Below, in pieces: positions 1 through 48,141 of a stretch of 48,141 bases of DNA. The position numbers and the translations under genes were made by a program. The DNA comes from a virus. Lineage: Duplodnaviria; Caudoviricetes. The stretch lies in IMG/VR virus record IMGVR_UViG_3300022777_000062, positions 1-48,141 of that record; one strand, given 5' to 3'. How positions within the stretch are numbered: the first letter of the stretch is position 1; the number at the start of each line of letters is the position of its first letter. The notes beneath the pieces were generated by a model, which made no database searches, was not told where the DNA came from, and saw only the letters and a list, made by a program, of their open reading frames with translations.

Positions 1-149
1 TGCAGTGAAGCTGCGACGGGTTGCCCATGTGGCTGCATTGAGGGAACCATAAACATCTGCCCCGTTCGCATAGGGATTGCTCTGACCCTCATTCAACCTC
101 ACATCAATAAGCAACCTATTGTCAGTAGGGTTATAACCATTCTTGAAAG
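1..149. repeat. Terminal overlap with 47993-48141 (circular assembly junction), 147/149 identical
   Basis: Direct comparison; mismatches at 21 (T vs C at 48013) and 23 (G vs A at 48015); lies inside a CDS that reads through the junction. Confidence 0.95.
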
Positions 150-840
150 TGTCAAGCACTTGGCAGCGTGTTTTCTTAAAGTTATAGAATCTGAAGAAAG
201 AAATCAGGCCATCATATTCCAAATCAAACTGAGTTCCCTCATTACCCAAGAAATTAAGTGTGCCTGATGTGTCATCTGCGAGCTCACTCGTCACGCTTGT
301 GTCTTCTGCTTCTAACAATAGAGTACCGTTTTCATCCAGCATGTAGATGTCCCGTCTGTTGTTATTAAAAGACACAGCCATGTAAATCCAAGTGTCTGCT
401 AAATCTGCTGTGGTATTTCCGGCGGTTTCGATTACATTGATGGTACTGTCCCCTGATTGTGTGCCAGTGCTCATGGTACTCGAGGAAATCAAAGTACGGT
501 CCCTGTCTACGCCGTCCTTGGCAATGTCAATATAGAAAACGTCGTCGCCCCAAGGAAAATTTCCTAAAAACTGTATATTACCGTTCGAGTCCAGCACTTC
601 GAAAGTTCTTTGGTTTATTCTTTGCCTATATTTAAACTCTAATTCGAAGGTACCTTCTTTCTGACCATTCAACACATTGTCAACAGCAGAATCTAAAGTA
701 GCCGGAGGAGGGTTAGCGGCAGTACCGTCGTGACTCAAGGCCCAGAATCCCAGAGGCTCCTGTGGATTTGAAATAGGGAAAGTAAACCCTGACGGTAGCA
801 CCCATCTGTTTCGTGAGCCAGTAATGAACCTATTTACCAT
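1..840 (-). CDS. N-terminal half of ~562-aa tandem LamG/concanavalin-like virion protein (continues at 47992-47144)
   Basis: ATG at 840 overlaps the TAA of the upstream ORF; open frame MVNRFITGSRNRW... runs to base 1 and joins in frame with the 47144-48106 ORF; internal duplication FFRFYNFKKTRCQVLDTF / FFRVYNYKKTRAEVEDTF. Confidence 0.8.
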   Translation of the reverse strand, partial: MVNRFITGSRNRWVLPSGFTFPISNPQEPLGFWALSHDGTAANPPPATLDSAVDNVLNGQKEGTFELEFKYRQRINQRTFEVLDSNGNIQFLGNFPWGDDVFYIDIAKDGVDRDRTLISSSTMSTGTQSGDSTINVIETAGNTTADLADTWIYMAVSFNNNRRDIYMLDENGTLLLEAEDTSVTSELADDTSGTLNFLGNEGTQFDLEYDGLISFFRFYNFKKTRCQVLDTFKNGYNPTDNRLLIDVRLNEGQSNPYANGADVYGSLNAATWATRRSFTA

Positions 841-1346
841 TACGAAACCACCTGCAATTTACCGTACGAAACGAACAAGTTTTTGGCAATGTAGCCGTGC
901 ATGTCTAAGTTGATGTCAACGTAAACGGGAAACGTGGGGCTGCCTTGAAGGTCAACCTGAACTTTAAAGCCATCCCCATCAACAACAAAATCAATGCTGC
1001 TACCTGTAGCGTTAATGGAAAAATCTGCTGCCCCGTCGTAATTTTCCACGGACAAAGTACCACCATCATTAACCATGGCGCGCTTGTCCCCAATGAAATC
1101 AAAGAAGGAACCGTCACTGTTAACGAGCAAAGCTAATGGTTGTCCGGCCAAGATGCTGTCATCAGGTAAGTAGAATTTGTCATTGCTGTCATCACTTAAA
1201 AAGAAGTCCGAAGTACCTGTACCTTTGCTCGACTCAATTTTTCCAGCTAAGCGGATGATGCGTTCGCCTTGGAAAAAGAATTGGTGTTCGAAGATTGCTG
1301 TCTTTCTGCGTTCTTTGAGTGTTGTTGGAAAAGTTCTTTGTGCCAT
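840..1346 (-). CDS. Small beta-rich virion protein, paralogue 4 (cement/decoration-like)
   Basis: Shares DKFYLPDDS, NDGGT and VQV motifs with three neighbours; in late operon. Confidence 0.6.
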   Translation of the reverse strand: MAQRTFPTTLKERRKTAIFEHQFFFQGERIIRLAGKIESSKGTGTSDFFLSDDSNDKFYLPDDSILAGQPLALLVNSDGSFFDFIGDKRAMVNDGGTLSVENYDGAADFSINATGSSIDFVVDGDGFKVQVDLQGSPTFPVYVDINLDMHGYIAKNLFVSYGKLQVVS

Positions 1347-3557: not shown

Positions 3558-3558
3558 G

Positions 3559-4530: not shown

Positions 4531-5174
4531 ACTATTACCTCCTGTATAGCTTCATTCGTCGGCTCGTTTCGACTACACTAAGTTCCTTTAAAATACGAAA
4601 CGAGGGCTTGGGGCCTCCTAGCTCTAAATCATAGCTTTTAACCATGGCTTTACATCATACAAGCATTGTTAAGTTTTTCCACGCACACACACAACGCGCA
4701 TTTCACGGGGGTAATGGACAGGAGGCGCGGTGTGGAGGGGTTAATGGCTGCAGAATTTACGGGGGTGGGGTAGAAAACCTATACCACACGACTTCCCCCA
4801 TTAGCTTTTCAAATCGCAGAGTCCCACTTCTTTTGTCTGGCTCCTGGTAAATTTCTACTGCAATCAACTATATAGTTAAAGAGTGAAAGGCAACAAGCCA
4901 CACTGCCCTGTATGTGGGAATTCTTATTAACACTTTCCTCAATTCCCGCAAACAGCTGCTCAAAACCAAAACCTATTAACGCGCGTCTGTTTTTATATTA
5001 ACTCTGCCACTATTGCTGCTACTGTTGCTCCGTAAATTGACTGACAGCAGCAGAATTTGGAGGGATTTACATGGAGGGGGTTGGCAATTGGGCTTTGGCG
5101 AGTTAGATTGAAAGTAGTTAGATTGAAAGTAGAAAGTTTTGGTCAGCACATAAACGAGTTGTTTAGTTAAGTGC

Positions 5175-5203
5175 TTGACAAATTAGGAACTTAACGCTAG
5201 ATT
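5175..5203 (+). promoter_or_regulatory. Sigma70-type promoter
   Basis: TTGACA-17 bp-TAGATT upstream of 5246. Confidence 0.75.
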
Positions 5204-5245: not shown

Positions 5246-5689
5246 ATGAACTTACAACGAACAGCAATGAAAATCGCAGCAGCCGCAACACCTTTCCTCT
5301 TCGCACTCGGTACAGCAGCAGCAACACCAGCAAACGCGAGCGAATCTACCACCTGGGACGTAGAGCTGAGGCAAATCGGCGACATGGACCAAGCGGCTTA
5401 CTGCCTGGAAAATGACGCTAATGGTGATGGCCTTTGGGATGAGCGTTACTGCTTACTCGCTGGCAACATGGACGCTGAAGACTTCATGGACAATCCTGAG
5501 GTTGCTTTCTTCAACATTGAAAATGGCAGCGACTATGCCAAGGCCAGTCAAACGTACACCCAAGACGGCAGCACCTACAAAATCACCGAAGCAGTAGTAA
5601 CAGGGCCTCAAGAAGAGCGGGTTTACCAAGCTAGGATGACGGAAAAACTGACGACTTCGAACCCAACCTTCACTGGCACTTGGAATTAA
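5246..5689 (+). CDS. Secreted/periplasmic acidic protein with signal peptide
   Basis: MKIAAAATPFLFALGTAAATPANA signal ending in AxA; AGGAG RBS. Confidence 0.7.
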   Translation: MNLQRTAMKIAAAATPFLFALGTAAATPANASESTTWDVELRQIGDMDQAAYCLENDANGDGLWDERYCLLAGNMDAEDFMDNPEVAFFNIENGSDYAKASQTYTQDGSTYKITEAVVTGPQEERVYQARMTEKLTTSNPTFTGTWN

Positions 5690-5798
5690 CGTTACACACA
5701 AAGGCAATAGAAAGCCACTGAACAAAAAGCTACCACCTTTCGCCTGGTTACCATCCTAACCGGGCTTTCTTTTTGTTGTGGCTTAAATGTGTTGGAGG
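5688..5798 (+). repeat. ~110-bp structured intergenic element, copy A (includes terminator-like hairpin)
   Basis: ACACAAAGGCAATAGAAAGCC...hairpin...TTTCTTTTTGTTGTGGCTTAA.T.TGTTGGAGG; homologous to 6375-6474, 10862-10960 and 11021-11130. Confidence 0.85.
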
Positions 5799-5827
5799 TT
5801 GACAAACGAGGGTACTGTTGTTAGCTT
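5799..5827 (+). promoter_or_regulatory. Sigma70-type promoter
   Basis: TTGACA-17 bp-TAGCTT upstream of 5857. Confidence 0.7.
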
Positions 5828-5856: not shown

Positions 5857-6387
5857 ATGAGCGTAGACAAGAGTTTCCACGAAGAGCAGGAACGAGGGTT
5901 ACACCAAGAACGCAGACTGAAGTTCCACATCGCGCACAAAGGACACACTGTGAAGGATGCCAACAAGCATCAACAGCTGAAGAACGACGTGGATTTCTTG
6001 GTGCGCCGGAACGATGGTAAGTGGTTAAGCGTTAGCGTCAAGGCACCAAGCAAGAAGAACGTAGACAAGTATGGCTGTGTGCTGGTGGAAACCCAAGTCA
6101 CGTTACGCTCGGGGAAAGTTAAACCGGGCTGGTTCTACTGGGGTACCGCTAATGTTATTGCTTTTGTCGTTGGCAATGATGTTTATACTGGCTGGAAGCG
6201 TGAGCTTTTGAGTTATTACGAGCGAAACAAGCACAGGATTAAGCACAAATCACTCACCACCAGGACTAAACAACAACAGAACGAGGCGGGTCATGCCTGC
6301 GTGGATGGTACGTGCGCTGCCTTGCCACTCGATGAGCTGCGCCACCAAGGTGTGCTTAGGTACAGTGGTAAGCTACAAAAGCAATAG
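5857..6387 (+). CDS. PD-(D/E)xK-fold nuclease-like protein
   Basis: E..(DV)DFLV..VSVK..VLVE..GWFY pattern of restriction-endonuclease-like phage proteins. Confidence 0.6.
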   Translation: MSVDKSFHEEQERGLHQERRLKFHIAHKGHTVKDANKHQQLKNDVDFLVRRNDGKWLSVSVKAPSKKNVDKYGCVLVETQVTLRSGKVKPGWFYWGTANVIAFVVGNDVYTGWKRELLSYYERNKHRIKHKSLTTRTKQQQNEAGHACVDGTCAALPLDELRHQGVLRYSGKLQKQ

Positions 6388-6474
6388 AAGCCAACACAAC
6401 CAACAAAATAATAATTCCCGGGGGAAGCATCACCCGGGATTATTAACGTGGGTTGTGGCTTAATTTTGTGGGAG
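6375..6474 (+). repeat. Structured element copy B
   Basis: ACAAAAGCAATAGAAGCC...CCCGGG hairpin...GTTGTGGCTTAATTTTGTGGGAG. Confidence 0.75.
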
Positions 6475-6492
6475 CGAAACGAGGGCCGAGGG

Positions 6493-6654
6493 TTAAAAGG
6501 GGATGTTACTAATCGCTTCGCCGCATTCTTGTGCCAGCTCTTGACTAAGGCCAGCACGAGCAAGCAAGGCCACCAACAAGTATTCCACTGCGCGTGCTGC
6601 TAATTGGCCGCTGCCTTTTGGAATGTCACTAAAGAAATCCTTAATTAGTTTCAT
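6493..6654 (-). CDS. Small 53-aa hypothetical protein (MKLIKDFFSDIP...)
   Basis: AGGAGG RBS; open frame to TAA at 6493; below the ORF-track size cutoff. Confidence 0.55.
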   Translation of the reverse strand: MKLIKDFFSDIPKGSGQLAARAVEYLLVALLARAGLSQELAQECGEAISNIPF

Positions 6655-6889
6655 GCTTTTCTACCTCCTGCTCTATTTCCTGCTGGTCTACCTCCTGCTG
6701 TTCGTAGACCGCATCTAGTTACCGTCGCTTCTTGCGCTTGTTGTTCTTGGCGTTAATACGTTTCTTGCCAGCCATCAGCATACACTGTTGCATCATCATC
6801 ATCACCTCCCTCCGGCACATACAATAAGTGGCCGCCTACGATTGGCAGCCACCGTTTCGATTTAAATGATGCTCGTAACAATATTGATT

Positions 6890-7144
6890 CTAATAGTAGT
6901 GCGACTCATCAAAAAAGACAAAGCATCTAGGACGTGTGCCACAAAGCGCTTCACGTAACGGAATATGGCTTGAATCATCTAGTTCCTCCTTTGGAAACTG
7001 CATTGTTTGCTTCCAGTTCTTGCCGTCAAAGATGGCAGTGATTGTGCGCTTGTCAACTTCCCACCTGTCCGCTAGCTCTTGGTATGTAGCTCCCAGTTTG
7101 CGGGCGTGGCTGATTGACAAGACATCAAGCTCCGTAAGTTTCAT
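6890..7144 (-). CDS. Helix-turn-helix DNA-binding protein
   Basis: GATYQELADRWEVDKRTITAIFDGKNW HTH. Confidence 0.7.
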   Translation of the reverse strand: MKLTELDVLSISHARKLGATYQELADRWEVDKRTITAIFDGKNWKQTMQFPKEELDDSSHIPLREALCGTRPRCFVFFDESHYY

Positions 7145-7146
7145 GT

Positions 7147-7653
7147 TTACAGCCTTTCGTAATCTGCTTCCATGAATAATTGTACCTCATCATTCCGCCT
7201 GTTGACAAGCCCTTCGTTAACGCCATTGTCGTCACGATTCCAGCGCTTAATTTGGTCAGCGAGGCGTTGCTTTTCAGGGTACGTCAAAGCATCACCATCA
7301 GCCATGTCTTTCAGCATACTCAGTAAAGTCGAACGTTTGAACGCACCGAGGCCCACGTTATAAACAAAGCTTACCAAAGCATCCAGTTCGTATTGACGCA
7401 TCTTAATGTTGCGGGGAAGTGCACGTCCGAGGCCACGGGCAAACGAGTCTACCTTCTGCGTCAAGATGATGCGTGCTTGCTTCTTGGTCACGGTGTCATC
7501 CCACGTAACAGAGCGACCATTCAAAGTCGTGAATCCATAGCCAACAGTGGGGATGTTGTTGGTGTCGGCATAAGCTTCACGACTAAACCCTTCCCACGCA
7601 GCAATGAAGTCAATGACTTTGGGGCTCGGGTCGAAAGCTTTGGGATTGCGCAT
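7147..7653 (-). CDS. Phage lysozyme (GH24 endolysin)
   Basis: WEGF...AYADTNNIPTVGYG (E-x8-D-x5-T), DALVSFVYNVGLGAF, GLVNRR; likely start MRNPK at 7653. Confidence 0.9.
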   Translation of the reverse strand: MRNPKAFDPSPKVIDFIAAWEGFSREAYADTNNIPTVGYGFTTLNGRSVTWDDTVTKKQARIILTQKVDSFARGLGRALPRNIKMRQYELDALVSFVYNVGLGAFKRSTLLSMLKDMADGDALTYPEKQRLADQIKRWNRDDNGVNEGLVNRRNDEVQLFMEADYERL

Positions 7654-8014
7654 GATTCCTTCGTCCTTTGGCTTGGTGTCTTCTTGCTTTGTTTCGCTAA
7701 CATCAGCACGTCCTGGGTTACTTGTGTTCCCGGCCCAACGTGCGTTTCTACGTTTGATGAATTTCATGATTCTGTCCGGCACCTCGCTCCTTCTACCTTC
7801 ATTTCTTCTTCCGTTTCCGGCAGAAGTCTTTGGCTTTTGATTTGCTGATTCCGATTCGTTTCCTCGTCCGTTTGTCATTAGCAGCAGCACACATCAGCCT
7901 CTTTTGCTTTTTACTCTTGCTGGGCACGTGCTTTCACCTCCTACACGAAACAAGTCCCAGCTGCCAAAAGAGGCCGGGACTTGAACCTACGACTTGGGTT
8001 GTAGAACTTGGGAC

Positions 8015-8389
8015 TTAGAATGCGGGGCTTAGTTCACTGACGGTTCCACTCAGCTTGGGCGCTTTAGGGTTTTCGCTGTTGTTCAACCAGACAGCAACAT
8101 CATAAATAGCGCTCCCGTCTTGTGGATTGCAGAGTCTACCCTTCATGTCCGGAGCCTTTTCAGATGCACCATCATTTTGCTTTTCTAGCCAGAGGGTATA
8201 GACTCTGTCCTTGTTCTGGTCCACAACGTTGCCTTCTAAGCCTGAATCTGAGTAGAAGAGGAATGCTGTGCACGTACTGGCTTGGTCATTGAAGTCGATG
8301 TTACCATTACCATCAGCAAAATTAATCTTGCCAGAGTAATCAGTTTTGCTTTGTTCGCGACTTTGCCAGAGTGCAATTCGTGCTTCCAT
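8015..8389 (-). CDS. DUF736-like/SSB-like protein
   Basis: Repeated KAPDMKG / KAPKLSG and xVAVW motifs; own promoter. Confidence 0.5.
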   Translation of the reverse strand: MEARIALWQSREQSKTDYSGKINFADGNGNIDFNDQASTCTAFLFYSDSGLEGNVVDQNKDRVYTLWLEKQNDGASEKAPDMKGRLCNPQDGSAIYDVAVWLNNSENPKAPKLSGTVSELSPAF

Positions 8390-8420
8390 GTGAACCTCGT
8401 GTGCTGCGCGTACTAACTAT

Positions 8421-8449
8421 ATTGTAACGAAACGAAGGGACTGTGTCAA
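8421..8449 (-). promoter_or_regulatory. Sigma70-type promoter
   Basis: Minus strand TTGACA-17 bp-TACAAT. Confidence 0.85.
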
Positions 8450-8504
8450 GAGTCCGGGTTAATGCTAGCCAAACCAGCAAGCACTACCAGAAACAGCCAG
8501 AAAG

Positions 8505-8804
8505 TTAGTGACGTTGCGATGAATTCGTACATAGGGTACTCGCCTTGAACTCTACTGGACACTGTAGCGAACACCGAGGCTGGTTGTCAAGGTGTGCTTT
8601 GACTCGGTTTTCTAGTCGCGGAATGACTTGCCAGTTGCCATCTGTGTGCCAGCCACCACGAGCAGTCGGAAGGATGTGGTCAATGGAGTATTCGCAGCCA
8701 TCAATATAGCCAAAGAAACGAGCGACCCTGCGTAAGAAGGCGAGTCGCTCATCATCATGGATTGCTTGTTCTGGTGTTTTATAGGGAACTAGTTTCGCTG
8801 TCAT
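8505..8804 (-). CDS. HNH endonuclease
   Basis: IDHILPTARGGWHTDGNWQVI...ENRVK. Confidence 0.8.
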   Translation of the reverse strand: MTAKLVPYKTPEQAIHDDERLAFLRRVARFFGYIDGCEYSIDHILPTARGGWHTDGNWQVIPRLENRVKAHLDNQPRCSLQCPVEFKASTLCTNSSQRH

Positions 8805-9114
8805 CAGAACTTGCCATCACCTCTTGGATGACAAAGTTCCTGGCGTTTCGAGCTAGTTCCTTGGTTGGTGTGTAACTGGGATGTAGCAGAGTTGGAATGT
8901 TTTCCCACAGCTGCTGGAGGATGTATTCATTAGTTCCAGCAATAGGCTCAACAGCATCGCCAACTCGCTTGATGTCACCGTAACGAAAGAGCTGAGCCTT
9001 GAGCTTGTGGTTCGTTGGCCAGAATAGTTCATCATCATCAAAGAACTCCGTAAGAATAGAAGCTGCTGTGTAATCAGGCTGCTTGTCAATTAACAAGTCA
9101 GTCAGTAAGTCCAT
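8779..9114 (-). CDS. Hypothetical protein
   Basis: GGGAG RBS; tiles the operon. Confidence 0.6.
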   Translation of the reverse strand: MDLLTDLLIDKQPDYTAASILTEFFDDDELFWPTNHKLKAQLFRYGDIKRVGDAVEPIAGTNEYILQQLWENIPTLLHPSYTPTKELARNARNFVIQEVMASSDDSETSSL

Positions 9115-9129
9115 TCAAAAGCTCCCTTG

Positions 9130-9417
9130 CTATAACTGCGCAACCTTTTCATCGCCAATGTACACAACAACATGCACATTGTCAACATCTTCCTCGTCTT
9201 GCAGTTCACGGTGAGCCTCTTGCTCGGCACGAATCTGGTCAACAATAGCTTGAATTTCATCGTCCGTCAACTCTTCCTCCTGGACTACATCTTCCGACGT
9301 AGCCTCGGGGTGTTGAAACTGGGACTCGAGCGTAGCAACTCTTTCTTCTACGTAACGAAGGGAAGATTTCAGCTCGTTTACTTGTTCGAGGATTTCGTTC
9401 AGCTTGTCCATCTGCAT
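9130..9417 (-). CDS. Highly acidic small protein
   Basis: Coiled coil followed by E/D-rich tract; AAGGAG RBS. Confidence 0.6.
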   Translation of the reverse strand: MQMDKLNEILEQVNELKSSLRYVEERVATLESQFQHPEATSEDVVQEEELTDDEIQAIVDQIRAEQEAHRELQDEEDVDNVHVVVYIGDEKVAQL

Positions 9418-9419
9418 GA

Positions 9420-9572
9420 TTAATACTCCTTCAGCTGGTTTTCTATGTATTGTGCGTACTTCAGTAGCAGCAGCAGGAAGTCATCCTTTTCCACTTTGCT
9501 AAGTTTCTGCAAATAAAACTTCAGATTGTACGCACTCTTGAAAGCTTCGTCAATTAGTTCCTCGTTGTTCAT
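9420..9572 (-). CDS. Small hypothetical protein (MNNEELIDEAF..., 50 aa)
   Basis: True start likely 9572, just downstream of a promoter; the longer ORF call only translates repeats. Confidence 0.55.
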   Translation of the reverse strand: MNNEELIDEAFKSAYNLKFYLQKLSKVEKDDFLLLLLKYAQYIENQLKEY

Positions 9573-9582
9573 TGTTACTACT

Positions 9583-9611
9583 ATTGTAACGTCAACTGCT
9601 GGTGCTGTAAA
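9583..9611 (-). promoter_or_regulatory. Sigma70-type promoter, near-leaderless transcript
   Basis: TTTACA-17 bp-TACAAT; ATG 10 nt after the -10 box. Confidence 0.7.
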
Positions 9612-9702
9612 GAGGGTACACGAAACGAGGGGAAAAGCCCCATCATCAACACCCGCTTCCGTTCGGGCGCCTTGGCCATGTATAATTTTATACTGAGCCA
9701 GC

Positions 9703-9772
9703 AATGTTGATGCGGGGAGTAATGTTGATGCGGGGAGTAATGTTGATGCGGGGAGTGAAGTTGATGCAGAGT
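9703..9772. repeat. 18-bp tandem repeat AATGTTGATGCGGGGAGT x3 plus one degenerate copy; two more degenerate copies at 9857-9890
   Basis: Direct reading. Confidence 0.95.
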
Positions 9773-9854
9773 AACGAGGGTACACGAAACGAGGGGAAAA
9801 GCGCCTCGGCATAGCGCCCCACCTACATGTATAATTTTATACCAAGCTAGGGCG

Positions 9855-10265: not shown

Positions 10266-10459
10266 GGTGCGTGTGTGTGTGTTGAAGATTTACAATAACA
10301 ACAATAACAGTAGAAGTAACGAAGGTACAACGTCGGAACGAAGGAACTAAGTTTTCATCGACCAACGTGGGTACCTGGCGGTTCCTTCTTAAAGCTAACA
10401 TACTCAAAAGCGAATTTGCAATGACGGTTGTTCGGTTGTTTGGGTACGGTCCAACAATA

Positions 10460-10538
10460 GAAGGCACCCTCGTTCCAAGAAGGTACCTCAGTTCCAATAG
10501 GGTACACTCGTCCCAAGAAGGTACACCATCAGTACCAA
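10460..10538. repeat. Four degenerate ~19-bp direct repeats GAAGGTAC-N7-CCAA (iteron-like)
   Basis: gaaggcaccctcgttccaa / gaaggtacctcagttccaa / tagggtacactcgtcccaa / gaaggtacaccatcagtaccaa. Confidence 0.75.
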
Positions 10539-10580
10539 CATGGCTACTTTTAACTCATACGTGCCGCCACTAAACAACAC

Positions 10581-10856: not shown

Positions 10857-10861
10857 GTGCG

Positions 10862-16388: not shown

Positions 16389-16763
16389 ATGAAATTAGAC
16401 CCGAGCGAATACCCGCATCAAGAAGCTAGCAGAATCAGATGGCTTTATAGTCAGCACATGAAGCACGTTAGCCAAGACAACGAAGAGGAAGAGGTTAATG
16501 CTGATGGTGGTCGACAGTCGCCTACTGACCTCGACTACACACTCCTCCCAGTCAAGGCCATCGACATGGTTGGCTTGCTCATGACCGAAGCAGCGGCAAA
16601 GTATGAGCGCGACAATTGGCGCAAGATTTCAGCACGTGACCACATTAACCATGCCATTCGCCACGCTTTCATGTGGATTCGTAACGGCAACAATGATGAG
16701 CTAGTTCGCGCAGCTTGCCGCATGCTTTTCGCTCTTGAAACGCAGAATTCAGACGTCGAATAA
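16389..16763 (+). CDS. dATP/dGTP diphosphohydrolase-like (DUF5664) protein
   Basis: AAAKYERDNWRK...HAIRH...AACR signature. Confidence 0.7.
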   Translation: MKLDPSEYPHQEASRIRWLYSQHMKHVSQDNEEEEVNADGGRQSPTDLDYTLLPVKAIDMVGLLMTEAAAKYERDNWRKISARDHINHAIRHAFMWIRNGNNDELVRAACRMLFALETQNSDVE

Positions 16764-17898: not shown

Positions 17899-17900
17899 CC

Positions 17901-18784: not shown

Positions 18785-21700
18785 ATGAGCCAAACCCCTA
18801 ATACCTTCAAACCTGTATACGCTAGAACCTACGCTCGTTACGTTGAAGAAGACGGCCGTCGCGAAACGTGGTTCGAGGTTGTAAAGCGTGCTGTTGATGG
18901 TATTGACCACTTGATTCCCGGTGACATGGACCCGGTACAGCGTGCCAAAATGTTCAATTACATCATGCAGTTGAAGGCTTTTCCAGCTGGTCGGTGGCTC
19001 TGGGTTGGTGGTACTGATTGGGTGATGCAAGAAAAGAATCACTTGGGGGCTTTTAATTGCATCAACATCAACATTACCGAGCTCCAAGATTTTGCCACGT
19101 TGTTTGATTTGTGTTGCCAAGGGTGCGGGACTGGTGCTGTTCTGGAGTGGAGCAACCTGAGTCAGTTGCCCCCGATGAAGAATAAACTAAATGTAGAGGT
19201 GATTCCCCATGCCAGGCAGAATATTGGCGCTTTCAACCACATCCACGCACCCGAGCAAACAAGAATCGAATACACATCAGGAGGCAAATCTATACACATC
19301 AGAATCGGTGACTCCCGCGAAGGGTGGGCACATGGAATCCTCACCTTACTGGAGTTGGCTGCTTACGGAGGAGCAAGCGAATACGATGTTACGATTGACC
19401 TCAATTACGTGCGACCGAGCGGCTCACTTATTAGAGGCTTTGGCGGCATTACTAATCCAGAGCGTTTACCTGCTATGTACTCACGTATTGCCGAAATTAT
19501 TAGCGGTGCTGCTGAGGAAGGCCGCAGACTTACTCCAGAAGAGTGCTGCCTGGTTATTGATGAGGGAGCCGAAGCTGTGGTCGCAGGTAACGTACGTCGG
19601 TCAGCGGGTATGCGTCAGTTTGATGCGTCCCATCCAAACATTAAGCTCAACTTATACCACGTGGATGAGGATGGTAACTACTCCGTGGACCCGAAACGGC
19701 AGCCACTGAGGATGGCCAATCACACCAAAGTTTACCACCAGTTGCCCAGTAAGCAGGAGGTTGAGGACAGTGTACGATTACAATTTCGAACTGGCGAAGG
19801 TGCTTTCGAGTATGCCCCTGCTGCTATTGCTCGTGCTAATCGCGACCTCTTGCCCACCTCAATAGACCGCTACGAATTCATCGCTCGTTACGAAAAATCG
19901 CAGCAAGAGGCGGCTCAAATGTTAATCGACCGTTCGGATGAAATCAGTAGTGAAGAACTTGACCATCGTATAAAACGCTACGCACACAATCCATGTACCC
20001 TGGGCTCCTCACGACTCCTGACTCCTGAGGGCTACCGTAAAATAGAAGACCTGGTGGGCTCGACTGTAATCATCAATAAGGATGGTGTTGCTGTTAACTC
20101 CCGAGTGTGGTGCAGTGGAACTAAGGATGTTTATAAACTCACCCTCACGAACCACCAAAAGCTCTACTTCACTGCCGACCACGTTTTCATGACAGTGAAT
20201 GGGAAAGAGTTGCAAGCTAAAGACTTAAAAGGCGAGCAATTACAGCCTTTCCTCGAGTTGCCGGTCCATTCTACAGACGACATTAAAGCTGGCTTTGTAC
20301 AAGGCGATGATGAGTTAGCTGATTTGCCTAGTAATTTCGATGAAAAAAGCAAAGCCGAAAAAGCAGGGTTCCTCTGCGGACTGTATTCTGCTAATGGCAG
20401 TGTAATCAGCAGAACACGTGTCGCCCTCAAGAGCACTTGCAAGCAACTCATAGAGCAGGTGCAAAAAACGCTACTAGAGGACTTCGGAATAAACTCCTAC
20501 TATACGGTGAACAAGGAGCGAGTCCAGGAATTCAGCAATGGGCAGTACACGATGCGGGAAAGCTATGACTTAAACATTGCTGAGTTCGCGAGCCTGCAAG
20601 AGTTCCACAACAGCATCGGCTTCTACCAGACGTACAAGCAAGAAGCCCTCATGCAAACCATCAAGCGGAAAGCCCCTAGAGTTCGCTCTATTAAGTACTA
20701 CAGTACAGAGCTAGTTTATGACTTCAGTGAGCCGCTAACTAACTGGGGCGTTGCTGAGGGCTTCGTAGTTCACAATTGTGCTGAAATAATTGGACATAAT
20801 TTTGCATGTAATCTTTCGGAGGTGCAGCTTGCGCAGATTGACCCCCATAATCACACAGAGCAATACGAGGCTTTTGAGGTTTCTACCTTGGCTGCCTGTG
20901 CTAACTTACATTTTCATTTCAACGTTCCCAAGCTTGAAAGAAGCAGACAAATGGACCCAATCATTGGTGTTGGTTTTACTGGTCTATTTGATTTCTTTGT
21001 TCGTGCCTTTGGAAAAGACTGGCTCGAATGGGTCCTCGAAGGCAGACCACACGGAGGACGGCGCGAGTACTACCTACCGCTAGAACAAGACTACTTGGAA
21101 GAGTGGAACCATGTAGTCAATCGCGTGGTGGACAATTACTGTGAAGCTCACGGAGTAAAACGCCCCAATCGCGTAACAACAGTGAAGCCCTCAGGTACCC
21201 TTTCCCAGCTGAGTGGCTCGTCCCCAGGTTGGCATCCCAGCAAGGCAGCTCACTTCATCCGCCGCGTTACGTTTGCTGCTGGGGACCCCGTAGCAAATGC
21301 CTGTCGTCGTTACGGCTACCGAGTAGTTCCGAGTCAAAAGTGCACCGATGAAAATGGGCAGCTATTAAATGACCCGGATGACCCCAGAGTAGACGAGTGG
21401 CTCGTGGAAATTCCCGTTAAAGCTCCCTGGACACAGTATGTTGATGGTGATGCTGATGAACTCGACACCCAGGAGGTACCTGCCGTAGCTCAGTTTGACT
21501 TGGCTATGCAGGTTCAAACTTACTACTGCGAGCATAATACCAGCAGCACCATTGAATATGATGAGGAGGAAATCGAGCCCCTAGCTGAGCAAATCTATTC
21601 CGCAGCTCGCAATGGTGAGTATGTGTCCGTGGCTTTGATGCAACGCGCTCGAGCCAATCAGCTCAAGCACACCTTTCCACGACTGCCTTACGAGCCAATT

Positions 21701-21862
21701 ACCAAGGAGCAGTACGAAGAGCTGCAGCAAGAAATAAATGAAGATTTGGATTTCGAAGTCTTGCTGCAGGAAGAAATGAAGAAGTTAAGTAAAGAGGAGG
21801 CCAATCAGGATGTCGGCGAATCAGGATGCAGCAAAGAAGGCTGTTCGATTCTACCAGAGTGA
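18785..21862 (+). CDS. nrdJ: Class II (adenosylcobalamin-dependent) ribonucleotide reductase containing an intein
   Basis: RTYAR, FPAGR, AFNC, VVAGNVRRSA, NP-CAEI (split by intein), CNLSE, TTVKPSGT, C-terminal CxxxxC. Confidence 0.95.
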   Translation: MSQTPNTFKPVYARTYARYVEEDGRRETWFEVVKRAVDGIDHLIPGDMDPVQRAKMFNYIMQLKAFPAGRWLWVGGTDWVMQEKNHLGAFNCININITELQDFATLFDLCCQGCGTGAVLEWSNLSQLPPMKNKLNVEVIPHARQNIGAFNHIHAPEQTRIEYTSGGKSIHIRIGDSREGWAHGILTLLELAAYGGASEYDVTIDLNYVRPSGSLIRGFGGITNPERLPAMYSRIAEIISGAAEEGRRLTPEECCLVIDEGAEAVVAGNVRRSAGMRQFDASHPNIKLNLYHVDEDGNYSVDPKRQPLRMANHTKVYHQLPSKQEVEDSVRLQFRTGEGAFEYAPAAIARANRDLLPTSIDRYEFIARYEKSQQEAAQMLIDRSDEISSEELDHRIKRYAHNPCTLGSSRLLTPEGYRKIEDLVGSTVIINKDGVAVNSRVWCSGTKDVYKLTLTNHQKLYFTADHVFMTVNGKELQAKDLKGEQLQPFLELPVHSTDDIKAGFVQGDDELADLPSNFDEKSKAEKAGFLCGLYSANGSVISRTRVALKSTCKQLIEQVQKTLLEDFGINSYYTVNKERVQEFSNGQYTMRESYDLNIAEFASLQEFHNSIGFYQTYKQEALMQTIKRKAPRVRSIKYYSTELVYDFSEPLTNWGVAEGFVVHNCAEIIGHNFACNLSEVQLAQIDPHNHTEQYEAFEVSTLAACANLHFHFNVPKLERSRQMDPIIGVGFTGLFDFFVRAFGKDWLEWVLEGRPHGGRREYYLPLEQDYLEEWNHVVNRVVDNYCEAHGVKRPNRVTTVKPSGTLSQLSGSSPGWHPSKAAHFIRRVTFAAGDPVANACRRYGYRVVPSQKCTDENGQLLNDPDDPRVDEWLVEIPVKAPWTQYVDGDADELDTQEVPAVAQFDLAMQVQTYYCEHNTSSTIEYDEEEIEPLAEQIYSAARNGEYVSVALMQRARANQLKHTFPRLPYEPITKEQYEELQQEINEDLDFEVLLQEEMKKLSKEEANQDVGESGCSKEGCSILPE
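19994..20776 (+). mobile_element. Intein (261 aa) at the NrdJ active-site NP|CxE with a partial LAGLIDADG domain
   Basis: Begins CTLGSS; block B TADH; GFLCGLYSANG; ends VVHN followed by C+1. Confidence 0.93.
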
Positions 21863-24860: not shown

Positions 24861-27800
24861 TTATAGCCTCCTTAGCCTCTTCGTCTGAGCGCTCCAAGAT
24901 GTTTTTGATTGTTTCTTTGTAAGCTTTCTTCCGCTCGTTTCGGTTAAGTTTCGGCGGCTTGATTTGTTCTTTTCGCATCTGTTTGTATGCGTTTTTAGGC
25001 TGCAAGTTATTCTGGTCTGCCCACTTTTCAACACGCCGCACACTAGCCCGCATTTCTGCGAGTGTCTGCATCATCGTTGCCAGCTCATCCTTCTTCCGTT
25101 TTATGTCTTGGGGGTCAGTTTCGGTCCGGAGTTCCTCGCGTTTGTCCCGCAGCTTGGATTCCATGTTACGTATATTGCGCCGGGCATCACTGATGTTGCT
25201 GGAAAGGTTGTACATGGGGTCAATGTAGTCCACCCGTAACCAGGTCTGCGCCCCAATCATTCTGTCCGCCAAGCCATCGTAGTACTGGTTTTTGTCGAAG
25301 TCCGTACGTTCTGCGCCAAAAATGCTGTCTTTAGATTGCACTAGTTCAACGGATTTACCATCATCACCAATAACGTAGCCACCTCTTTGCCCGAATATTT
25401 TACCTGGGTTGCCGTCGTTAATCCGCTGGAGCAGAGGGAACGACTCTTCCAGAACGTAACGGACCGAGCCTGGCATGGGAATTCCGAGGAACGACGTGCG
25501 CTCGTCTTCAATTTTGCGACCCGTACCTATTTCTTGGCCGAAGCCAGCACCAACGAGGCCTTTCCACTGACCGAAGGTTTCATTGAGGAGTCGGCCGAGG
25601 AATGATGCTGTTTCTGTGTCGAGGAATTTGTTTTCTTCCCGCTGTCGTTTCGCAAATGCTGACTCACTTCGATGCTCAACGTCTTCCTTGTCGAGGATTC
25701 CGGCAGATTGCAGGGCTTTGTCAACGCCCCAGCCAACACCATCACCAAAGTTACTAATCATTTCAAAGGCGTCGCCAATTGGGTCAATGCTGCGCGTGGG
25801 TAGGTAGAAAACTAGTGGCCGCGTGTCATCATCTTCATCCGTGTCCAAGTCTACCGTCCAGTAGAGGGGCCGCTGCTCTTCTACAAAACCGGGAGTGATG
25901 TCACGTAACGAGCCGCCAATTTCCTCCTCTACGCGGTCTTCACTTCGTTGGTGCATTACGTTGTAAGCGTGGAGGATGTTGCCATATTGAACGGGGTGCT
26001 TCATTGCTCCTCGCACTTGGGAAACTGGGTTGCGACTCATGTAAGACCAAAAGGGAATCACGAAATTGCTGATGTTTTCATCCGCAACACCGCGGTCGTC
26101 AAACATGAAAAAGTAATTCTGGGCGTGCTCAATGGCTGAATCTAAATCGTCAAACTCCTCGATTTTCTGCGTTTGTATAAATTTAGCGGCTCGGCTTTGG
26201 CTGAGTTTTTCGAGGAAATTATTGCCTTGTTTTCTGTCGAAGGTTAGAGTTTTGAGTGTTTCGAACCGAGCAGCATTTTCCATTTCCGTGCCGAGGGTAG
26301 CCGTGAAGTTGGTGAGGGGGTCGAGTAGTGCTTGCTTGAGGATTCCCGGAGCATCTTTGAGTGTCTTGCCGGTACCACGTAACAACCCCATTTGACCGTA
26401 GTGAGCAGAAATGTGGCGCATGATGTTTTTAACTTCCCTAGCTTTGAAAGCTTGGGGCCCACCTTTTGTTACGTCTTCACCAATGTCTGGCGTCAAGTCG
26501 TTGACAAAGTTAAAGCGCCTCGCCTGACTGTACAACTCAGCCTCCGTTACGAGTTCACCATCAACGCCCTTGTATAACTTCTTTTTGTCATCTAATACTT
26601 CACGTATAAGTGAGGAAAATGGCTTGCGTAACGAGGGGTCCTTAGTCAAATCCTGGGCTGCTCGTGCTGTTACGCTTAACATCTTGGAAACGGAAGACAT
26701 GTAGTTCATCCAGTTGCCGCCTGCAGCCCACATCTGGAATACAGGGCCTATTGCTTGCGTGGTGAGGAACGATGGTGACGCTGTAGCCATAGCCTTAAAT
26801 GCGCTGTTAAATGTCTTGATTATGTTACCGAGGCCAGCCAAGTTAGTGGGCTCAGTAGTCAAGTCAGCCATAGAACGAAACATGTCAGCGGCACGAGGAT
26901 CCACGAAGATTTGTGGCATGTTGTCTATACTTTCCACATTCTTGTCCACGAAACCTTGAATCATTTCACGTGGAATTACAGCACGGGAACCTTCGCCAGT
27001 TTGAGGCAGCAAGGGGACGAAATTCTGAAACTTGCCTCCGGTGTCTTTGGCTAAGTCAGTACGCGTAACGCCCCAAGGAGCGGGGTTCCCATCATCACCA
27101 ACACTATTTCGAATCATCCCCCAAATGAAACCGGACTGCCCTGCTGCTGATTTCAACTGTTTCCTATAATTGCTAAAGGCGGAAGGCCAATCAACGGACA
27201 TCATTTTGCGGAGGCTTTGGTCTTGATGACGCTCCGGTAACTGGAAACGCTCAAAGGCCCAGTCCCTCATTTCCGGTGAAGTCATGGGGATTTTGCTGAG
27301 GATGCCGTGTTCTGACAGTGTTTCGAGTTGCCGGTCACTTAGTCTATTAAACAGAGCATCAGCAATCTTTTTTCCATTACCTTCGTCGATGAGCTCACTA
27401 ATTCCCGAAACACCAAGCTCCTCATAAATGTTGGGATTTTGGGCGCGTAACATGGCGTCGAGCACCACGTCATCCTCAACTATGTAGTTAAATGTGTTAC
27501 GTGCTTTTTGAAAAGCTTTCGTCATGCCGTCTTTATTTCCAGCATCAAACGAGTTGAGGATGCGGTCGGCTTCCCCGAGTTCCTGGTCTTTGGCAATTTT
27601 GAGCCGTTCTTCAAACTGTTGGGTGAGGTTGCGTGGGAAGAAGCCTAGGTTTTCAAGCTCGCCAACTTCAATCCCCTGGTTTCGTGCTAGGTGCAGAACG
27701 TCGTGGTACGTGTCGGCCATCTTGCGCCCCATCGTCATGATTTCATTTTGAGTAGCTTCGTCGAGTCCCAAACGTGCCATGCGGTCGAGGGCTTGTTGGT

Positions 27801-40978: not shown

Positions 40979-42615
40979 TTAACTGTCGGCAGTGGAAATA
41001 ACAACTGCGTGGTCTGGACGGTAAAGCTTAACTCCATAGATTTGAGTTTGAACCACGTGCCACTCTTGGTACTCAGTGGACCATTGGGCATCCACGCTGG
41101 GCATTTTCTGCATGGCGAGGTTGCACCAATCACGATGCATCATGATGGCGCTGAATAGTCCATCAGCATCATTGTCTAGTCCAGTGGCTTGGTCCTGGGT
41201 GGGGTAATATAGTGCGTTGGAATTGTAACCGGGCGTGGGTCCGGGTGTACCATCGTCGCCATTAGTGAAGCCATCCGATTGATTCTTCTGCAAAGCGGTG
41301 GTCATAACAACAGGCATGCCGAGGATTTGCCCGACGGTGCCTCGGCTGATGTCTGCTGGTGAACCATTGACCTCGGAACTGGTGAGGACGTTTCGGGGGT
41401 CGGTATTTTGCAAGACACCAGCACTCAGCATGGAGGCTTCTTGTTGAGGCGAAACGACGAGGACGCGGCCTTCCTTGGGAACGCGCTTTTCGTTTAACAC
41501 TTCCCAAGCCTCGAGGATGTCCGCATAAGAAATGCCGTTGTTGGAATCCACAATGTGGTGGTCGTTGTTGGATGGTCCAGTGCCGGGGTTTTCACCGAGC
41601 ACAGCAGCACGCATTCCAAGTAGGAAATCATCGATGTCACGTGCTAAGGCTCGACCAGCTTCCTGAGTATACAGTTGCCGCATGTCAGTGTGGGACTGAA
41701 TCTGAGCAATGTCCTCAACTGCGATGCTGGATTCTTTGTACTGGTCGATGACCATTTTGTATTCGCCTTCCTTACGGCTTTGGAACGTAACTGGGGTGCC
41801 AGGAAGCTTTTCATTGACACCTAGACGTCCCAATAGAGGAAGACGTAACGTGTCCCCAGCTCGTCCTTGAAAGGGGACGTTACGGGTAAACTGGCTCATC
41901 ACCAGGTTGTCTTCTAAATATTTCTTTATGTCCGTGCTCCAAATTTCCAAGTGGAGCTCACTGCTTTCACAGTGACTTCGACTGTCCCATCGTGGTAGGC
42001 GTGCAGTCTGTGAGGGCTACTCAGCGTTGTTCGGTCAGGGCTTCGCAATGCTCCAACTCATCTTCTGAGTATGGCCTGCGGTAGCCTTCCCTGTTAACTC
42101 GTTTACAGCAAAGCATGTAAAGGTGCTCTGCTGGCTCACGTTTCGTGACTAAATAGTTCATGAACGTGGGTAGGGCTTTAATTATGCGCCGGAAACCGAT
42201 GACGGAAAGGACCCAAAAGGGCTTCTGATTCTTCCTTTCATAGTCTTCTACGTGAAAAGGAAAGTCATCGCCGATTTGCTCCCGGATGTAGTCGAGGGTA
42301 GGGTAGTGGTGAGTCATGCTGATTTTGAAGCATGGCTGGGGGTAGGTTTTCCCGTTTCGACGCGTGTGCCTCAAACCAATCCAGCCTTCGCCATCGACTA
42401 GCCCTGCGAACCATTGGTAGAACGCTGTCTTACCCTGCGGATTGTCCATTGTTCATCCTCCTAATTTTTACGTCGTGAGTATAGAAGGCTTTAGGAGTTT
42501 CCCGCATTTGAGCCTACTTTTACGTTCCCAATTTATTGCTCTTAGGAACAAAACTTTGTACCTGGGATGAAGTAAGGGAATTACCTTGAGGTGCTACTCC
42601 TCCTGAATATGTCAT
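40979..42615 (-). CDS. Major capsid protein, spliced (exons 42615-42544 and 41947-40979; 346 aa)
   Basis: AGGAGGA RBS; exon join gives ...QSFVP-EIWS...; GDTLRLP, AGRALARDID, VPKEGRVLVVSP, YGVKLYRP. Confidence 0.92.
41948..42543 (-). mobile_element. Group I self-splicing intron (596 nt) in the major capsid gene
   Basis: 5' exon ends in U with P1 GTTCCT/GGGAAC; P AAATGCGGGAA; Q AATCCGCAG; P3 GTAGGC/GCCTAC; P7 GACTG/CAGTC; terminal G. Confidence 0.92.
42021..42449 (-). CDS. Intron-encoded single-motif LAGLIDADG homing endonuclease
   Basis: WFAGLVDGEGWI; YLVTKR; AGGAGG RBS. Confidence 0.9.
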   Translation of the reverse strand: MDNPQGKTAFYQWFAGLVDGEGWIGLRHTRRNGKTYPQPCFKISMTHHYPTLDYIREQIGDDFPFHVEDYERKNQKPFWVLSVIGFRRIIKALPTFMNYLVTKREPAEHLYMLCCKRVNREGYRRPYSEDELEHCEALTEQR

Positions 42616-45455: not shown

Positions 45456-47140
45456 ACGAATCCACCATACCTAGTATTAACGTTGGTTTTGTGTGGGTTA
45501 AATGGTTGTTGTTTGCTGTTAGTCGGGACGCTGATTTCCTTCAGAATAGCAATAGCATCAGGAGCATCATCTTTAACCGTGGGTCGCCCGAAGAGGTTAA
45601 ACTGGTCCTTTAGCCCTTGCTTGGTACTCAGCGTCTGATTCATGAAAAATTTGCCCGAACTGAATAGAGGTTGCAACGCCGCCTCAATTCGTTCGTGCTT
45701 ATTGGTTTGCTCTGTTTTGTATTCACGAATTTGAATTGGTCTATAAGTATTGAAACGGTCACGGATGGAATTGATGAGCTGCTTCTGGAAACCAACAGCC
45801 TCAATGGTCACGGCGCTAAGTTTCCACTTGTCAAGCATTCCGTACATAGCATCAAGCCACTTGCTGAATGGCTCTTTACCTAAATACATGTCCACTACGT
45901 ACAAATTGCCCTCACTGTCCATACCACCAACAACAATGCAAGTGTAGTCACTATGTGCGTTGGAAGTTGCGGCGGGGTCAATGGCCATCCGCAACCTCAC
46001 CTCCGAAACCAAGTCCGGACCTTTGTGTATTGCTGCTGTTCGGGGCTGCTTGCAAATGATGTTGTGTTTGTGTATGAAGTTGATTTGGTCCCAGTGGAGG
46101 GTTTGCTCCGCGTCTGCGATGATGCTATTGAGGTACTGGGAAGCGAAACGACGCTCCGACATCGAAGCGCGCAACCTGCTTTCCACTGTTTCGTTGAATC
46201 GTTCCGGCCAGAGGTAACCATCAGCAGCATCAGTACCGTTGGCGTAAATGTTCCGTTGGTACGTTTCGAAACCTAGGTACTCTGCGTTTTGAAGCACGTG
46301 GCCATAGTAGTCTTCAGCATCATAACGCGTGCCAACAACAATCACCGTGTCGCCTACGAAGCACCACGGTCTAAAGCTACCATACTGCCTCGTGCTTTTG
46401 CAACACTTGGTGAAATTTTTGTACAAATCTTCATCAAACTCTTTAGGGTCGAGGACGGACTGCATGTCGAAAATCCAATCAAAAAGCCTTTCACGTTTTT
46501 GCTCGGTGTTGATGTTGTCGAACGTAACAACATCATCCAGTATTAGCTCATCAAAGTGGAAACCAGTAGCCACGCTGCCGACACTACCCGAAACGACGGT
46601 AGGCTCCTTCAAAATGTCATCGCGCAAAACCTGAATCGCATCAGTACGCCAAATTACCTTCTTGTCCTTTGCCTCCGTTTCGCTCTTCCGTTCAGTACCC
46701 GGCTGATCCATCGCAGGTATGAGTCGGCCGGGTTTGTGTGGCCTGTTGTTCCATACCTTTTCCTGCAAGTCCAGGTCCTCGAGGTAAGTTTTAATTTCAC
46801 GTATGAAGGAGGTAGAAAGCCTGTGACTTTCCGTTCCAACAAAGATGCGGATGTTGGGGTTTTGGTAAATCCTCCAAAGTGTGCGGCCTACAGACATCAA
46901 TGTGGACTTGAGGTGGCCACGTGGCATGAGGATTAACTGCCGGGATGAGCGTCGGTAATCCGTGGACCATTGGATGAGGTCATCGTGGCATTGACCGAAC
47001 TGCTTGGAACCCCCGTGAAACCCAATCAAATCCACGAAACTCCAGAAATCATACAGGGCCCTCAACCGCCATCTGTAGGACGGAATCTGCCCTGACCTGT
47101 CTTCTTTCGTTATTCTTTTCCGTTTCGCTACTTTAGTCAT
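45452..47140 (-). CDS. terL: Terminase large subunit
   Basis: MPRGHLKST Walker A, LILDD Walker B, GTRY, IDPA, DDAPDA. Confidence 0.93.
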   Translation of the reverse strand: MTKVAKRKRITKEDRSGQIPSYRWRLRALYDFWSFVDLIGFHGGSKQFGQCHDDLIQWSTDYRRSSRQLILMPRGHLKSTLMSVGRTLWRIYQNPNIRIFVGTESHRLSTSFIREIKTYLEDLDLQEKVWNNRPHKPGRLIPAMDQPGTERKSETEAKDKKVIWRTDAIQVLRDDILKEPTVVSGSVGSVATGFHFDELILDDVVTFDNINTEQKRERLFDWIFDMQSVLDPKEFDEDLYKNFTKCCKSTRQYGSFRPWCFVGDTVIVVGTRYDAEDYYGHVLQNAEYLGFETYQRNIYANGTDAADGYLWPERFNETVESRLRASMSERRFASQYLNSIIADAEQTLHWDQINFIHKHNIICKQPRTAAIHKGPDLVSEVRLRMAIDPAATSNAHSDYTCIVVGGMDSEGNLYVVDMYLGKEPFSKWLDAMYGMLDKWKLSAVTIEAVGFQKQLINSIRDRFNTYRPIQIREYKTEQTNKHERIEAALQPLFSSGKFFMNQTLSTKQGLKDQFNLFGRPTVKDDAPDAIAILKEISVPTNSKQQPFNPHKTNVNTRYGGFV

Positions 47141-47143
47141 GCT

Positions 47144-48141
47144 TTACCTTGAAATCCACTGGTTGCTGCCGGTGTTTTTCCGGGTACCTATGTCGCCGCT
47201 AATTTCGTCTTTGATGTCGGTACCGCTTCCTTCTTCGAACTTGACATCAGCAACGAGGCCGGAGTTGTTTGGACTGTAGCCTTTGAAAAACGTGTCCTCA
47301 ACTTCAGCCCGTGTCTTCTTGTAGTTATAGACGCGGAAGAAGTTTATTGCTCCGGGATGAACGTTATTACCATCATCACTCAGCAGCCACATGGTGTTGC
47401 TGTTGTTACCGGTCCACACTAAGTCACCGCCGCTTCTACCGGAAACGTCCTGCTCACCATGCCACAGGAGTTTACCCGAGGCCGTGTCAAAAATGAACGA
47501 TTCAATGGTGCTACCATCATTAATCACTGACACATAGAGCCACTGCTTGGGATTGTTAGTGGTCCAGCCGGTGGTACTCGCTCCTTTATTGAATCGAGGG
47601 TTCACGGCGAAATTATTCTGACCACCAGTGCCGGTTTTACTGCTACGGTTACTGCCTAGCTTTTCATTGTCCAAAGTGTCCTGGGAAATCTGGTGCCTTT
47701 CTTGTTCATCAATTCCCATGTCTAGGAATAAATACTCAATGTCACCGGTGCTGGAACTGGGGTCGAAAGGCGCATGCACATTGATTAAATTTTGAATTTG
47801 CCACAACTGACCATCGTTCCGGTCCGTGATGGCAATTTCGAATTCAACTGTGGCCTCATTCCCGCCGTGTAGAATATTGTCCACGATGGTTCCAGGACCA
47901 CCGCTGAACTCAACTTGGGGAAGTTTGTTGTTACTGCCGGCATTGTTATACCCCGTGACTTCTAGAGCCTGTGTGAAGTCTGCCGCGGGGGATGCAGTGA
48001 AGCTGCGACGGGCTACCCATGTGGCTGCATTGAGGGAACCATAAACATCTGCCCCGTTCGCATAGGGATTGCTCTGACCCTCATTCAACCTCACATCAAT
48101 AAGCAACCTATTGTCAGTAGGGTTATAACCATTCTTGAAAG
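47144..48141 (-). CDS. C-terminal half of the tandem LamG-like virion protein (joined to 840-1)
   Basis: In frame with the 840-1 ORF across the terminal overlap; WLYVSV...GAINFFRVYN...VKFEEGSG. Confidence 0.8.
   Translation of the reverse strand, partial: FKNGYNPTDNRLLIDVRLNEGQSNPYANGADVYGSLNAATWVARRSFTASPAADFTQALEVTGYNNAGSNNKLPQVEFSGGPGTIVDNILHGGNEATVEFEIAITDRNDGQLWQIQNLINVHAPFDPSSSTGDIEYLFLDMGIDEQERHQISQDTLDNEKLGSNRSSKTGTGGQNNFAVNPRFNKGASTTGWTTNNPKQWLYVSVINDGSTIESFIFDTASGKLLWHGEQDVSGRSGGDLVWTGNNSNTMWLLSDDGNNVHPGAINFFRVYNYKKTRAEVEDTFFKGYSPNNSGLVADVKFEEGSGTDIKDEISGDIGTRKNTGSNQWISR

Follow-up and report, generated by a model that had tools for sequence, protein, structure and literature searches.

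Introduction

Endonucleases II and IV of phage T4 cut the DNA of the host, while the phage's own DNA with its hydroxymethylcytosine is spared by base modification; cyanophage AS-1 reportedly induces a site-specific endonuclease as well and is said to protect itself by base modification, too. Here, we analyze a phage genome of 48,141 nucleotides (nt), i.e., positions 1 to 48,141 of the IMG/VR record IMGVR_UViG_3300022777_000062, referred to as the window in the following. It lacks the asymmetric words GAGA/TCTC and GATA/TATC (GAKA/TMTC in short) and encodes a candidate nuclease, P0001 (5857..6387, + strand). This protein is probably a weapon of the phage against host DNA, which it would cleave at a very short asymmetric site, while the phage protects itself through the purge of this site from its own sequence.

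Several described systems are related in part. Chlorovirus nucleases, whose recognition sites span 2-4 base pairs (bp), are believed to act early in the breakdown of host DNA (PMC7019647). The enzymes of PBCV-1 as well as Nt.CviPII and Nt.CviQII resemble what we propose for P0001, i.e., they are virus-encoded, have short sites and act on host DNA. However, chloroviruses package their enzymes and guard their DNA with adjacent methyltransferases, whereas no methyltransferase family was found in the window, where the absence of the sites would protect instead. NixI from the Vibrio cholerae satellite PLE is alike in being a nuclease of a mobile element that requires a motif and is toxic to the host, with PLE1 itself lacking the motif (PMC9410903). 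It differs in being an HNH nickase with an 8-bp motif that is aimed at the helper phage, and it involves no purge of hundreds of sites across a genome. In addition, PLE2 and PLE10 do carry the NixI motif, and a figure title in the same source states that protection is independent of sequence. For phage T5, the escape of the unmodified DNA from the phage's own nuclease is called unresolved in a preprint (10.64898/2026.04.02.716235).

Restriction-site avoidance (Rusinov et al. 2018, PMC6286503) likewise removes short words through silent changes where nucleases exert pressure, and it explains the losses of GGCC/GGNCC, perhaps also of GATC, that we observe in relatives of the window phage. Yet, as described there, it is host-driven and mostly palindromic, while the words considered here are asymmetric, 3-4 bp long, lineage-specific and, for AAT and AATC, missing from one phage yet retained by another that shares its host. 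P0001 can be likened to a viral restriction enzyme, yet it is no member of a restriction-modification pair, and its rule for separating self from non-self is apparently undescribed. The literature searched, with subscription journals mostly outside its coverage, contains no description of these purges or of the P0001 family as nucleases. The Metis preprint and PMC11356776 are both uninformative about motif purges.

Results

Absence of four asymmetric words from the window

Exact counting over all 48,141 bases yields zero copies for each of GAGA, TCTC, GATA and TATC, whereas the four together would be expected about 400 times from the Markov model and about 526 times from codon shuffling. For the maximal-order Markov model, this splits into about 250 expected copies of GAGA+TCTC (z -15.8) and about 148 of GATA+TATC (z -12.1). 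A preliminary description of this DNA had reported an apparent genome-wide loss of the four words and suggested counting all 4-mers against both kinds of expectation; the counts bear it out, also for the intein and the intron that it took to be purged, as follows from the total of zero for the whole window. It overlooked that GATC is nearly purged, too. Exact counting finds only three GATC sites (26898..26901, 28377 and 46705), followed by ATAT as the next-rarest 4-mer with 58 copies.

The codon null comprises 200 synonymous-codon shuffles of 39 genes (42,939 coding bases), with mean counts of 157 for GAGA, 125 for TCTC, 130 for GATA and 115 for TATC. Since no shuffle fell below 126, 100, 110 and 92 copies, respectively, codon bias offers no explanation, and the Markov and codon-shuffle nulls together rule out codon or trinucleotide bias as the cause. 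The purge was made via silent changes. At codon junctions, GAT+A is absent vs. 249 cases of GAC+A, GAG+A vs. 230 of GAA+A, TAT+C vs. 85 of TAC+C, and TCT+C vs. 42 of TCC+C.

The edges of the purge are sharp, i.e., 19 of the 20 one-letter neighbour words tested show 0.82-1.91 of their expectation, with GATC being the exception. On the coding strands, each word and its complement are both at zero, and thus the pressure acts on DNA and not on mRNA. Avoidance of a sequence-specific mRNA interferase, which would deplete the sense strand only, was therefore rejected. We also uphold the earlier inference of a strong sequence-specific activity that is unlike ordinary palindrome avoidance.

A candidate nuclease among the early genes

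P0001 (176 amino acids) is encoded by the second gene of the early block and was assigned a PD-(D/E)XK fold from its structure model and alignment. The AlphaFold model has a pLDDT of 95. Its best fold match is I-Ssp6803I (Z 10.4, root-mean-square deviation 3.0, 125 residues aligned), followed by NhoI (Z 9.3), D212 (8.4), Hjc (8.3), MspI (7.5) and DpnI (6.4); the best Foldseek E-value is 7.6e-4. Putative catalytic residues are E18, D46, K62 and E78. Among 29 aligned homologues, the latter three are invariant and E18 is conserved in at least 90%. The pattern S60-x-K62 with the Glu displaced to position 78 is what we take to be the known PD-SxK-E variant. The modelled core fold and the conserved acidic and lysine residues place P0001 in the PD-(D/E)XK superfamily, and deoxyribonuclease (DNase) activity is predicted.

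P0001 matches no Pfam or NCBIfam family, a word search returned only the protein itself, and tblastn in phages returned nothing. HMMER over 1.84 billion proteins gave 34 hits including P0001. Its Atlas neighbours are viral hypothetical proteins, close to NOV_C and PDDEXK_14. P0001 had been named the candidate before the cultured cyanophages PP and A-4L were examined, and a homologue was then found in both, namely in the early-block open reading frames (ORFs) ORF6 of PP and ORF11 of A-4L (profile E-values of about 1e-22 to 1e-25). The tree of the nuclease is mostly unresolved, with PP and A-4L on long branches.

Words lost by related phages

Among cultured phages, those closest to the window phage belong to the Saffermanviridae and infect filamentous cyanobacteria (identities of 27-29% for the tail and 36-40% for the portal), and for this reason its host is presumably cyanobacterial as well; close DNA relatives are missing from the phage collection. 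Its sister phages in IMG/VR (61-66% portal identity) show GAGA and GATA at normal counts but no GATC. Considering identical dipeptides in seven orthologous genes, none of 63 motif sites of the sisters is kept in the window, compared to 34 of 76 control words. That is, the GAKA purge is specific to the window's branch, while the nearest relatives retain the words.

Other members of the family have lost other words. AAT/ATT is nearly gone (observed/expected, also below) from PP (4/778), Pf-WMP3 (8/791) and LPP-2 (6/776), and A-4L lacks AATC/GATT altogether (0/209). TR020, CHP58, Pf-WMP4, yong1, LPP-1, G007 and G004 have lost palindromic-type words and nothing else. The palindromes GGCC and GGNCC are purged in relatives and kept in the window. 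Written on one strand, the purged words form the series AAT, AATC, GATC, TATC, TCTC. A comparison of 155 loci, each 4 kb or longer, shows clear asymmetric purges solely in A-4L, the PP group and the window, besides a marginal case of 5 kb (L099; GGAA/TTCC 1/16). Two short contigs with the nuclease gene show marginal losses, i.e., CGAG/CTCG (0/8.6) in L089 and GAGC/GCTC (0/5.4) in L046.

Four AATA words within the first 3.3 kb, conserved across the PP group, make up the few AAT copies left in these phages; they are located at 224, 752, 2069 and 3282 in PP (L020) and found at the same sites in L171 and L172. The last one lies between the ribosome-binding site and the start codon of the nuclease gene. 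The residual AATA words possibly reflect weaker cutting of AATA or a feedback in the early region. All three PP-group records keep about 90 GATC sites, compared to 0-3 in Pf-WMP4, yong1, LPP-1 and yong5 from the same host, and the GATC loss in the latter is thus not simply imposed by the host.

Phages sharing a host allow for a more direct comparison. L. boryana IU 594 is the recorded host of LPP-1 as well as LPP-2; LPP-2, which carries the nuclease gene, shows the AAT count given above, while LPP-1, which does not, has 769/883. Yong5, another L. boryana phage, has 2016/2025. A-4L and A-1(L) both infect PCC 7120 (PMC11530783), and in contrast to A-4L the latter retains AATC (637/676, counted in 50 of its 68 kb). 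As LPP-1 and A-1(L) keep the words on the same hosts, the loss of AAT and AATC cannot simply be put down to the host. If it were due to the host, each control phage would have to possess a counter-defence; a phage cause is the simpler reading here.

Association of nuclease gene and purge

Seven of the 19 genomes or records carry a match to the nuclease profile. None of the 12 records without a match shows an asymmetric purge of a 3-mer or 4-mer; these comprise seven complete or at least 88%-complete records (0/7) and five partial ones. Pattern scans contributed true homologues in 1/4, 25/52, 0/6, 1/10 and 0/5 of their matches, and duplicates of the G001 contig were removed before counting words.

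The carriers yong5, G001 and G011 are free of GATC, as are most non-carriers, such that the counts do not single out GATC as the site of these three enzymes. For G011, GATC (0/126) is the sole depleted word, which fits an older GATC specificity. For gapped or longer motifs, no purge-level depletion besides palindromes was found in yong5, G001 and G011; partial depletions concern CCACC/CCGCC in yong5 and GCGNGC in G001. The homologue of yong5 (L170; 38418-38987) belongs to a phage outside the Saffermanviridae with integrase and tail sheath genes.

A possible partner of the nuclease is the dATP/dGTP diphosphohydrolase domain PF18909 (Pfam match; 16389..16763, + strand in the window), which co-occurs with the nuclease gene in relatives. 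The window, the PP group, A-4L and G001 all have it, and it is absent from TR020, CHP58, Pf-WMP4, yong1, LPP-1, G007 and G004 as well as from the carrier yong5; the G011 contig is truncated. Within the family, it accompanies the nuclease gene in 4/4 vs. 0/5 lineages (p=0.008 without phylogenetic correction). We speculate that the enzyme might clean methylated nucleotides freed from host DNA.

Published toxicity of the homologues

For PP, the deletion of ORF6 rendered fragment 1 (PP1) clonable, and ORF6 gave zero E. coli transformants even with a single-copy vector, while its transcript was undetected following integration in S. elongatus (bioRxiv 2024.07.23.604706). Correspondingly, fragment C1 of A-4L could be cloned once ORF11 was deleted; ORF11 itself could be cloned at single copy but not at high copy, and its predicted promoter was active in E. 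coli (PMC9803696). Such toxicity is compatible with a DNase and no proof of one. Words starting with "nuclease" do not occur in the main text of either source, and neither does "AAT" in that of the PP preprint.

Discussion

Proposed mechanism

We propose that P0001 would be made early in infection from a host-type promoter and would cut or nick double-stranded DNA at GA(G/T)A / T(A/C)TC. With a GAKA site about every 64 bp in unbiased DNA, the host chromosome as target would be destroyed, while the purged phage DNA, having no site, would escape without any methylation. Silent changes suffice to eliminate all four words, and the purge is thus cheap. The older site of the family might have been GATC, from which the specificity would later have shifted to AATC, AAT and TATC/TCTC. 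The asymmetry of the site points to a monomer that would cleave the two strands separately. DNA cutting, the GAKA site, the host-chromosome target and the GATC ancestry are inferred here.

The broader generalization is a small phage nuclease family that performs restriction without modification, and we lean only slightly towards it. Here, words of 3-4 bases would be erased genome-wide as the sole distinction between self and host, the specificity would have jumped repeatedly (GATC to AATC, AAT, TATC/TCTC), the site would be readable from the missing words, and PF18909, as an enzyme that cleans up methylated nucleotides from host DNA, would be a second component.

Several observations weigh against P0001 as the cause of the purge. 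Its identity to ORF6 of PP and ORF11 of A-4L amounts to only about 22-24%, and its fold also resembles Holliday-junction resolvases, with Hjc scoring below I-Ssp6803I and NhoI. Of the six carrier lineages for which 30 kb of context or more is available, three (yong5, G001, G011) purge no asymmetric word. For yong5, such a purge had been predicted and was not found; its homologue has Gln at the E78 column, which is a post-hoc excuse for this failure. When lineages are counted on the portal tree, 3/6 carriers vs. 0/5 non-carriers are purged (one-sided Fisher p=0.12, or 0.09 with LPP-1 counted apart). Likewise, 24 short metagenome carriers, mostly of one clade, are without a convincing asymmetric purge, i.e., they show GATC loss and two marginal words only. 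Toxicity in E. coli is unspecific, since other ORFs are reported as toxic as well and ORF11 as clonable at single copy. Finally, the sister phages are represented by partial contigs.

Alternative explanations

Among the alternatives, a defence of the host fares best, although we regard it as unlikely. Either a DarT-like ADP-ribosyltransferase with a target narrowed to T(A/C)TC or an asymmetric restriction enzyme would have driven the purge, with the nuclease being incidental. DarT2 enzymes modify TNTC (PMC13309987), and the situation in the window is like that of DarTG2 in so far as TATC and TCTC are both TNTC words. In addition, the GGCC and GGNCC purges of the relatives demonstrate that host-driven loss can reach zero, and the retention of these palindromes in the window suggests a different host. 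However, avoidance of the DarT2 target would hit all TNTC words, whereas TGTC (404/342) and TTTC (678/574) are undepleted and even above expectation; the AAT and AATC words of the relatives do not match TNTC, and no DarT family was detected among 46 window ORFs (PHROGs, Pfam). The DarT option of the preliminary description thus fits poorly. As for restriction enzymes, PMC6286503 reports that only the sites of orthodox Type II systems are commonly avoided, while those of Type I and III are not systematically. As shown above, other phages with the same hosts also retain AAT and AATC. Moreover, a host defence would need a coincidence, as all three asymmetric purges were found in carriers of one rare gene. 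A Type II restriction-modification pair of the phage itself was also rejected: a cognate methyltransferase gene was not found in the window, i.e., no such family among 46 ORFs searched with PHROGs and Pfam, nor among 13 (PADLOC) and 16 (NCBIfam) ORFs.

It is rather improbable that another phage gene drives the purge and that P0001 is a structure-specific resolvase or a nonspecific nuclease travelling along. The similarity of the fold to Hjc, RecU and D212 as well as to restriction enzymes would allow for this, as would the carriers without asymmetric purge and several early ORFs without a family. Yet when 22 window genes were compared by tblastn with 16 records, the nuclease was the only uncharacterized gene matching PP or A-4L, where small or diverged genes may escape. 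Furthermore, A-4L has a separate annotated endonuclease (ORF17) beside ORF11, and PF18909, the other co-occurring gene, is described in Pfam as acting on free nucleotides and would thus not recognize a DNA word.

We give only a slim chance to the idea that the same nuclease chiefly serves against competing phages or plasmids or against the expression of host defences, and not for nucleotide supply. The phage has its own ribonucleotide reductase (RNR), ThyX and dUTPase, so salvage of host DNA is unneeded, and the T5 preprint (10.64898/2026.04.02.716235) raises a "scorched-earth" role for host DNA destruction. Still, a site this short hits the host chromosome anyway, such that the purpose would differ and the mechanism be the same, and in chloroviruses, mutual exclusion is reported not to be due to the viral restriction enzymes (PMC7019647). 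An artefact of the assembly as well as mutational or codon bias can be practically dismissed: while the window DNA was seen in one sequencing run only, which is maybe its source, and the trinucleotides AGA and ATA are mildly low, the codon-shuffle deficit and the sharp one-letter boundaries speak against it, and the same kind of purge occurs in three separately deposited cultured PP-group genomes.

Taken together, the interpretation offered by the preliminary description is supported in part: its phage-weapon option is favoured by the candidate nuclease, the homologues in differently purged relatives, the same-host controls and the E. coli toxicity, while its DarT option is not.

Implications

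If true, P0001 and its relatives provide a concrete answer, for one phage family, to how lytic phages with unmodified DNA destroy that of the host and spare their own, and enzyme specificity could be deduced from absent words. This is testable in two cultured and synthesized cyanophages, PP and A-4L, the latter being editable with CRISPR-Cas12a, whose toxic genes ORF6 and ORF11 had been left without a function. The proposed activity would also account for the known difficulty of cloning both genomes and imply a design rule, i.e., foreign genes for PP or A-4L would have to be AAT- or AATC-free, respectively. The family is furthermore a possible source of compact frequent cutters or nickases with new sites of 3-4 bases.

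Further features of the genome

The window (1..48141) is a complete podophage genome, as judged from its relatives and a direct repeat of 149 nt at the window ends. With its homologous virion module and shared gene order it is Saffermanviridae-like. The virion module is T7-like, and the gene content includes a primase-helicase, a family A polymerase, Erf, a Cas4-like exonuclease and the nucleotide enzymes mentioned above, the RNR with an intein. Gene order as well as homologous portal, terminase, tail and capsid proteins (27-40% identity) are shared with PP, Pf-WMP3, LPP-2, A-4L and TR020. The window differs from these Saffermanviridae in its purged word and in additionally encoding RNR, ThyX, dUTPase, a cobalamin adenosyltransferase and a lysozyme block.

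The physical genome ends likely lie at 4723..4765, just upstream of the early genes. Contigs of run X1, possibly the source of the window, stop at 4723 and start at 4765, which together with the gene order of PP and A-4L suggests a genome start just before the early genes at 5246 and 5857. Upstream of P0001, a possible host sigma-70-type promoter (TTGACA-17 nt-TAGCTT; 5799..5827, + strand) with a weak -10 box can be read from the sequence. It is absent from the list of a promoter scanner, which for the early part of the + strand names only 5175-5203.

An intein and a LAGLIDADG ORF are purged as well, as found by domain matches and counts. The class II RNR gene (18785..21862, + strand) contains a LAGLIDADG intein, and a LAGLIDADG ORF (42021..42449, - strand) lies within the capsid gene, presumably in an intron; Rfam at gathering threshold gives no match for this region. 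The counterpart of this ORF in a related phage has four of these motif sites.

The cobalamin adenosyltransferase gene adjoins ThyX and the B12-dependent, intein-containing RNR (17233-21862). Among the 16 relatives compared, only ThyX of these three was found, in one record.

An element of 70-130 nt occurs in up to four copies (5668-5799, 6385-6475, 10890-10966 and 11020-11151), following each of the first two early genes and located twice, in inverted orientation, upstream of the gene at 11179. It has no Rfam match and may mark the boundary of mobile early-gene cassettes. Between the early and the replication genes lies a reverse-oriented block (6493-10500) of lysozyme, HNH-like, helix-turn-helix and small ORFs, in which leftward promoters of sigma-70-like type are numerous. 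The stretches 9700-9900 and 10580-10860 contain long palindromes besides short tandem repeats.

Finally, some longer words are enriched in the window. CGAAAC/GTTTCG is enriched about twofold, with 112 copies vs. 55 in the Markov model (z 7.7), CGTAAC/GTTACG is 1.6-fold over expectation, and CGAAACGA or its complement is present in 26 copies.

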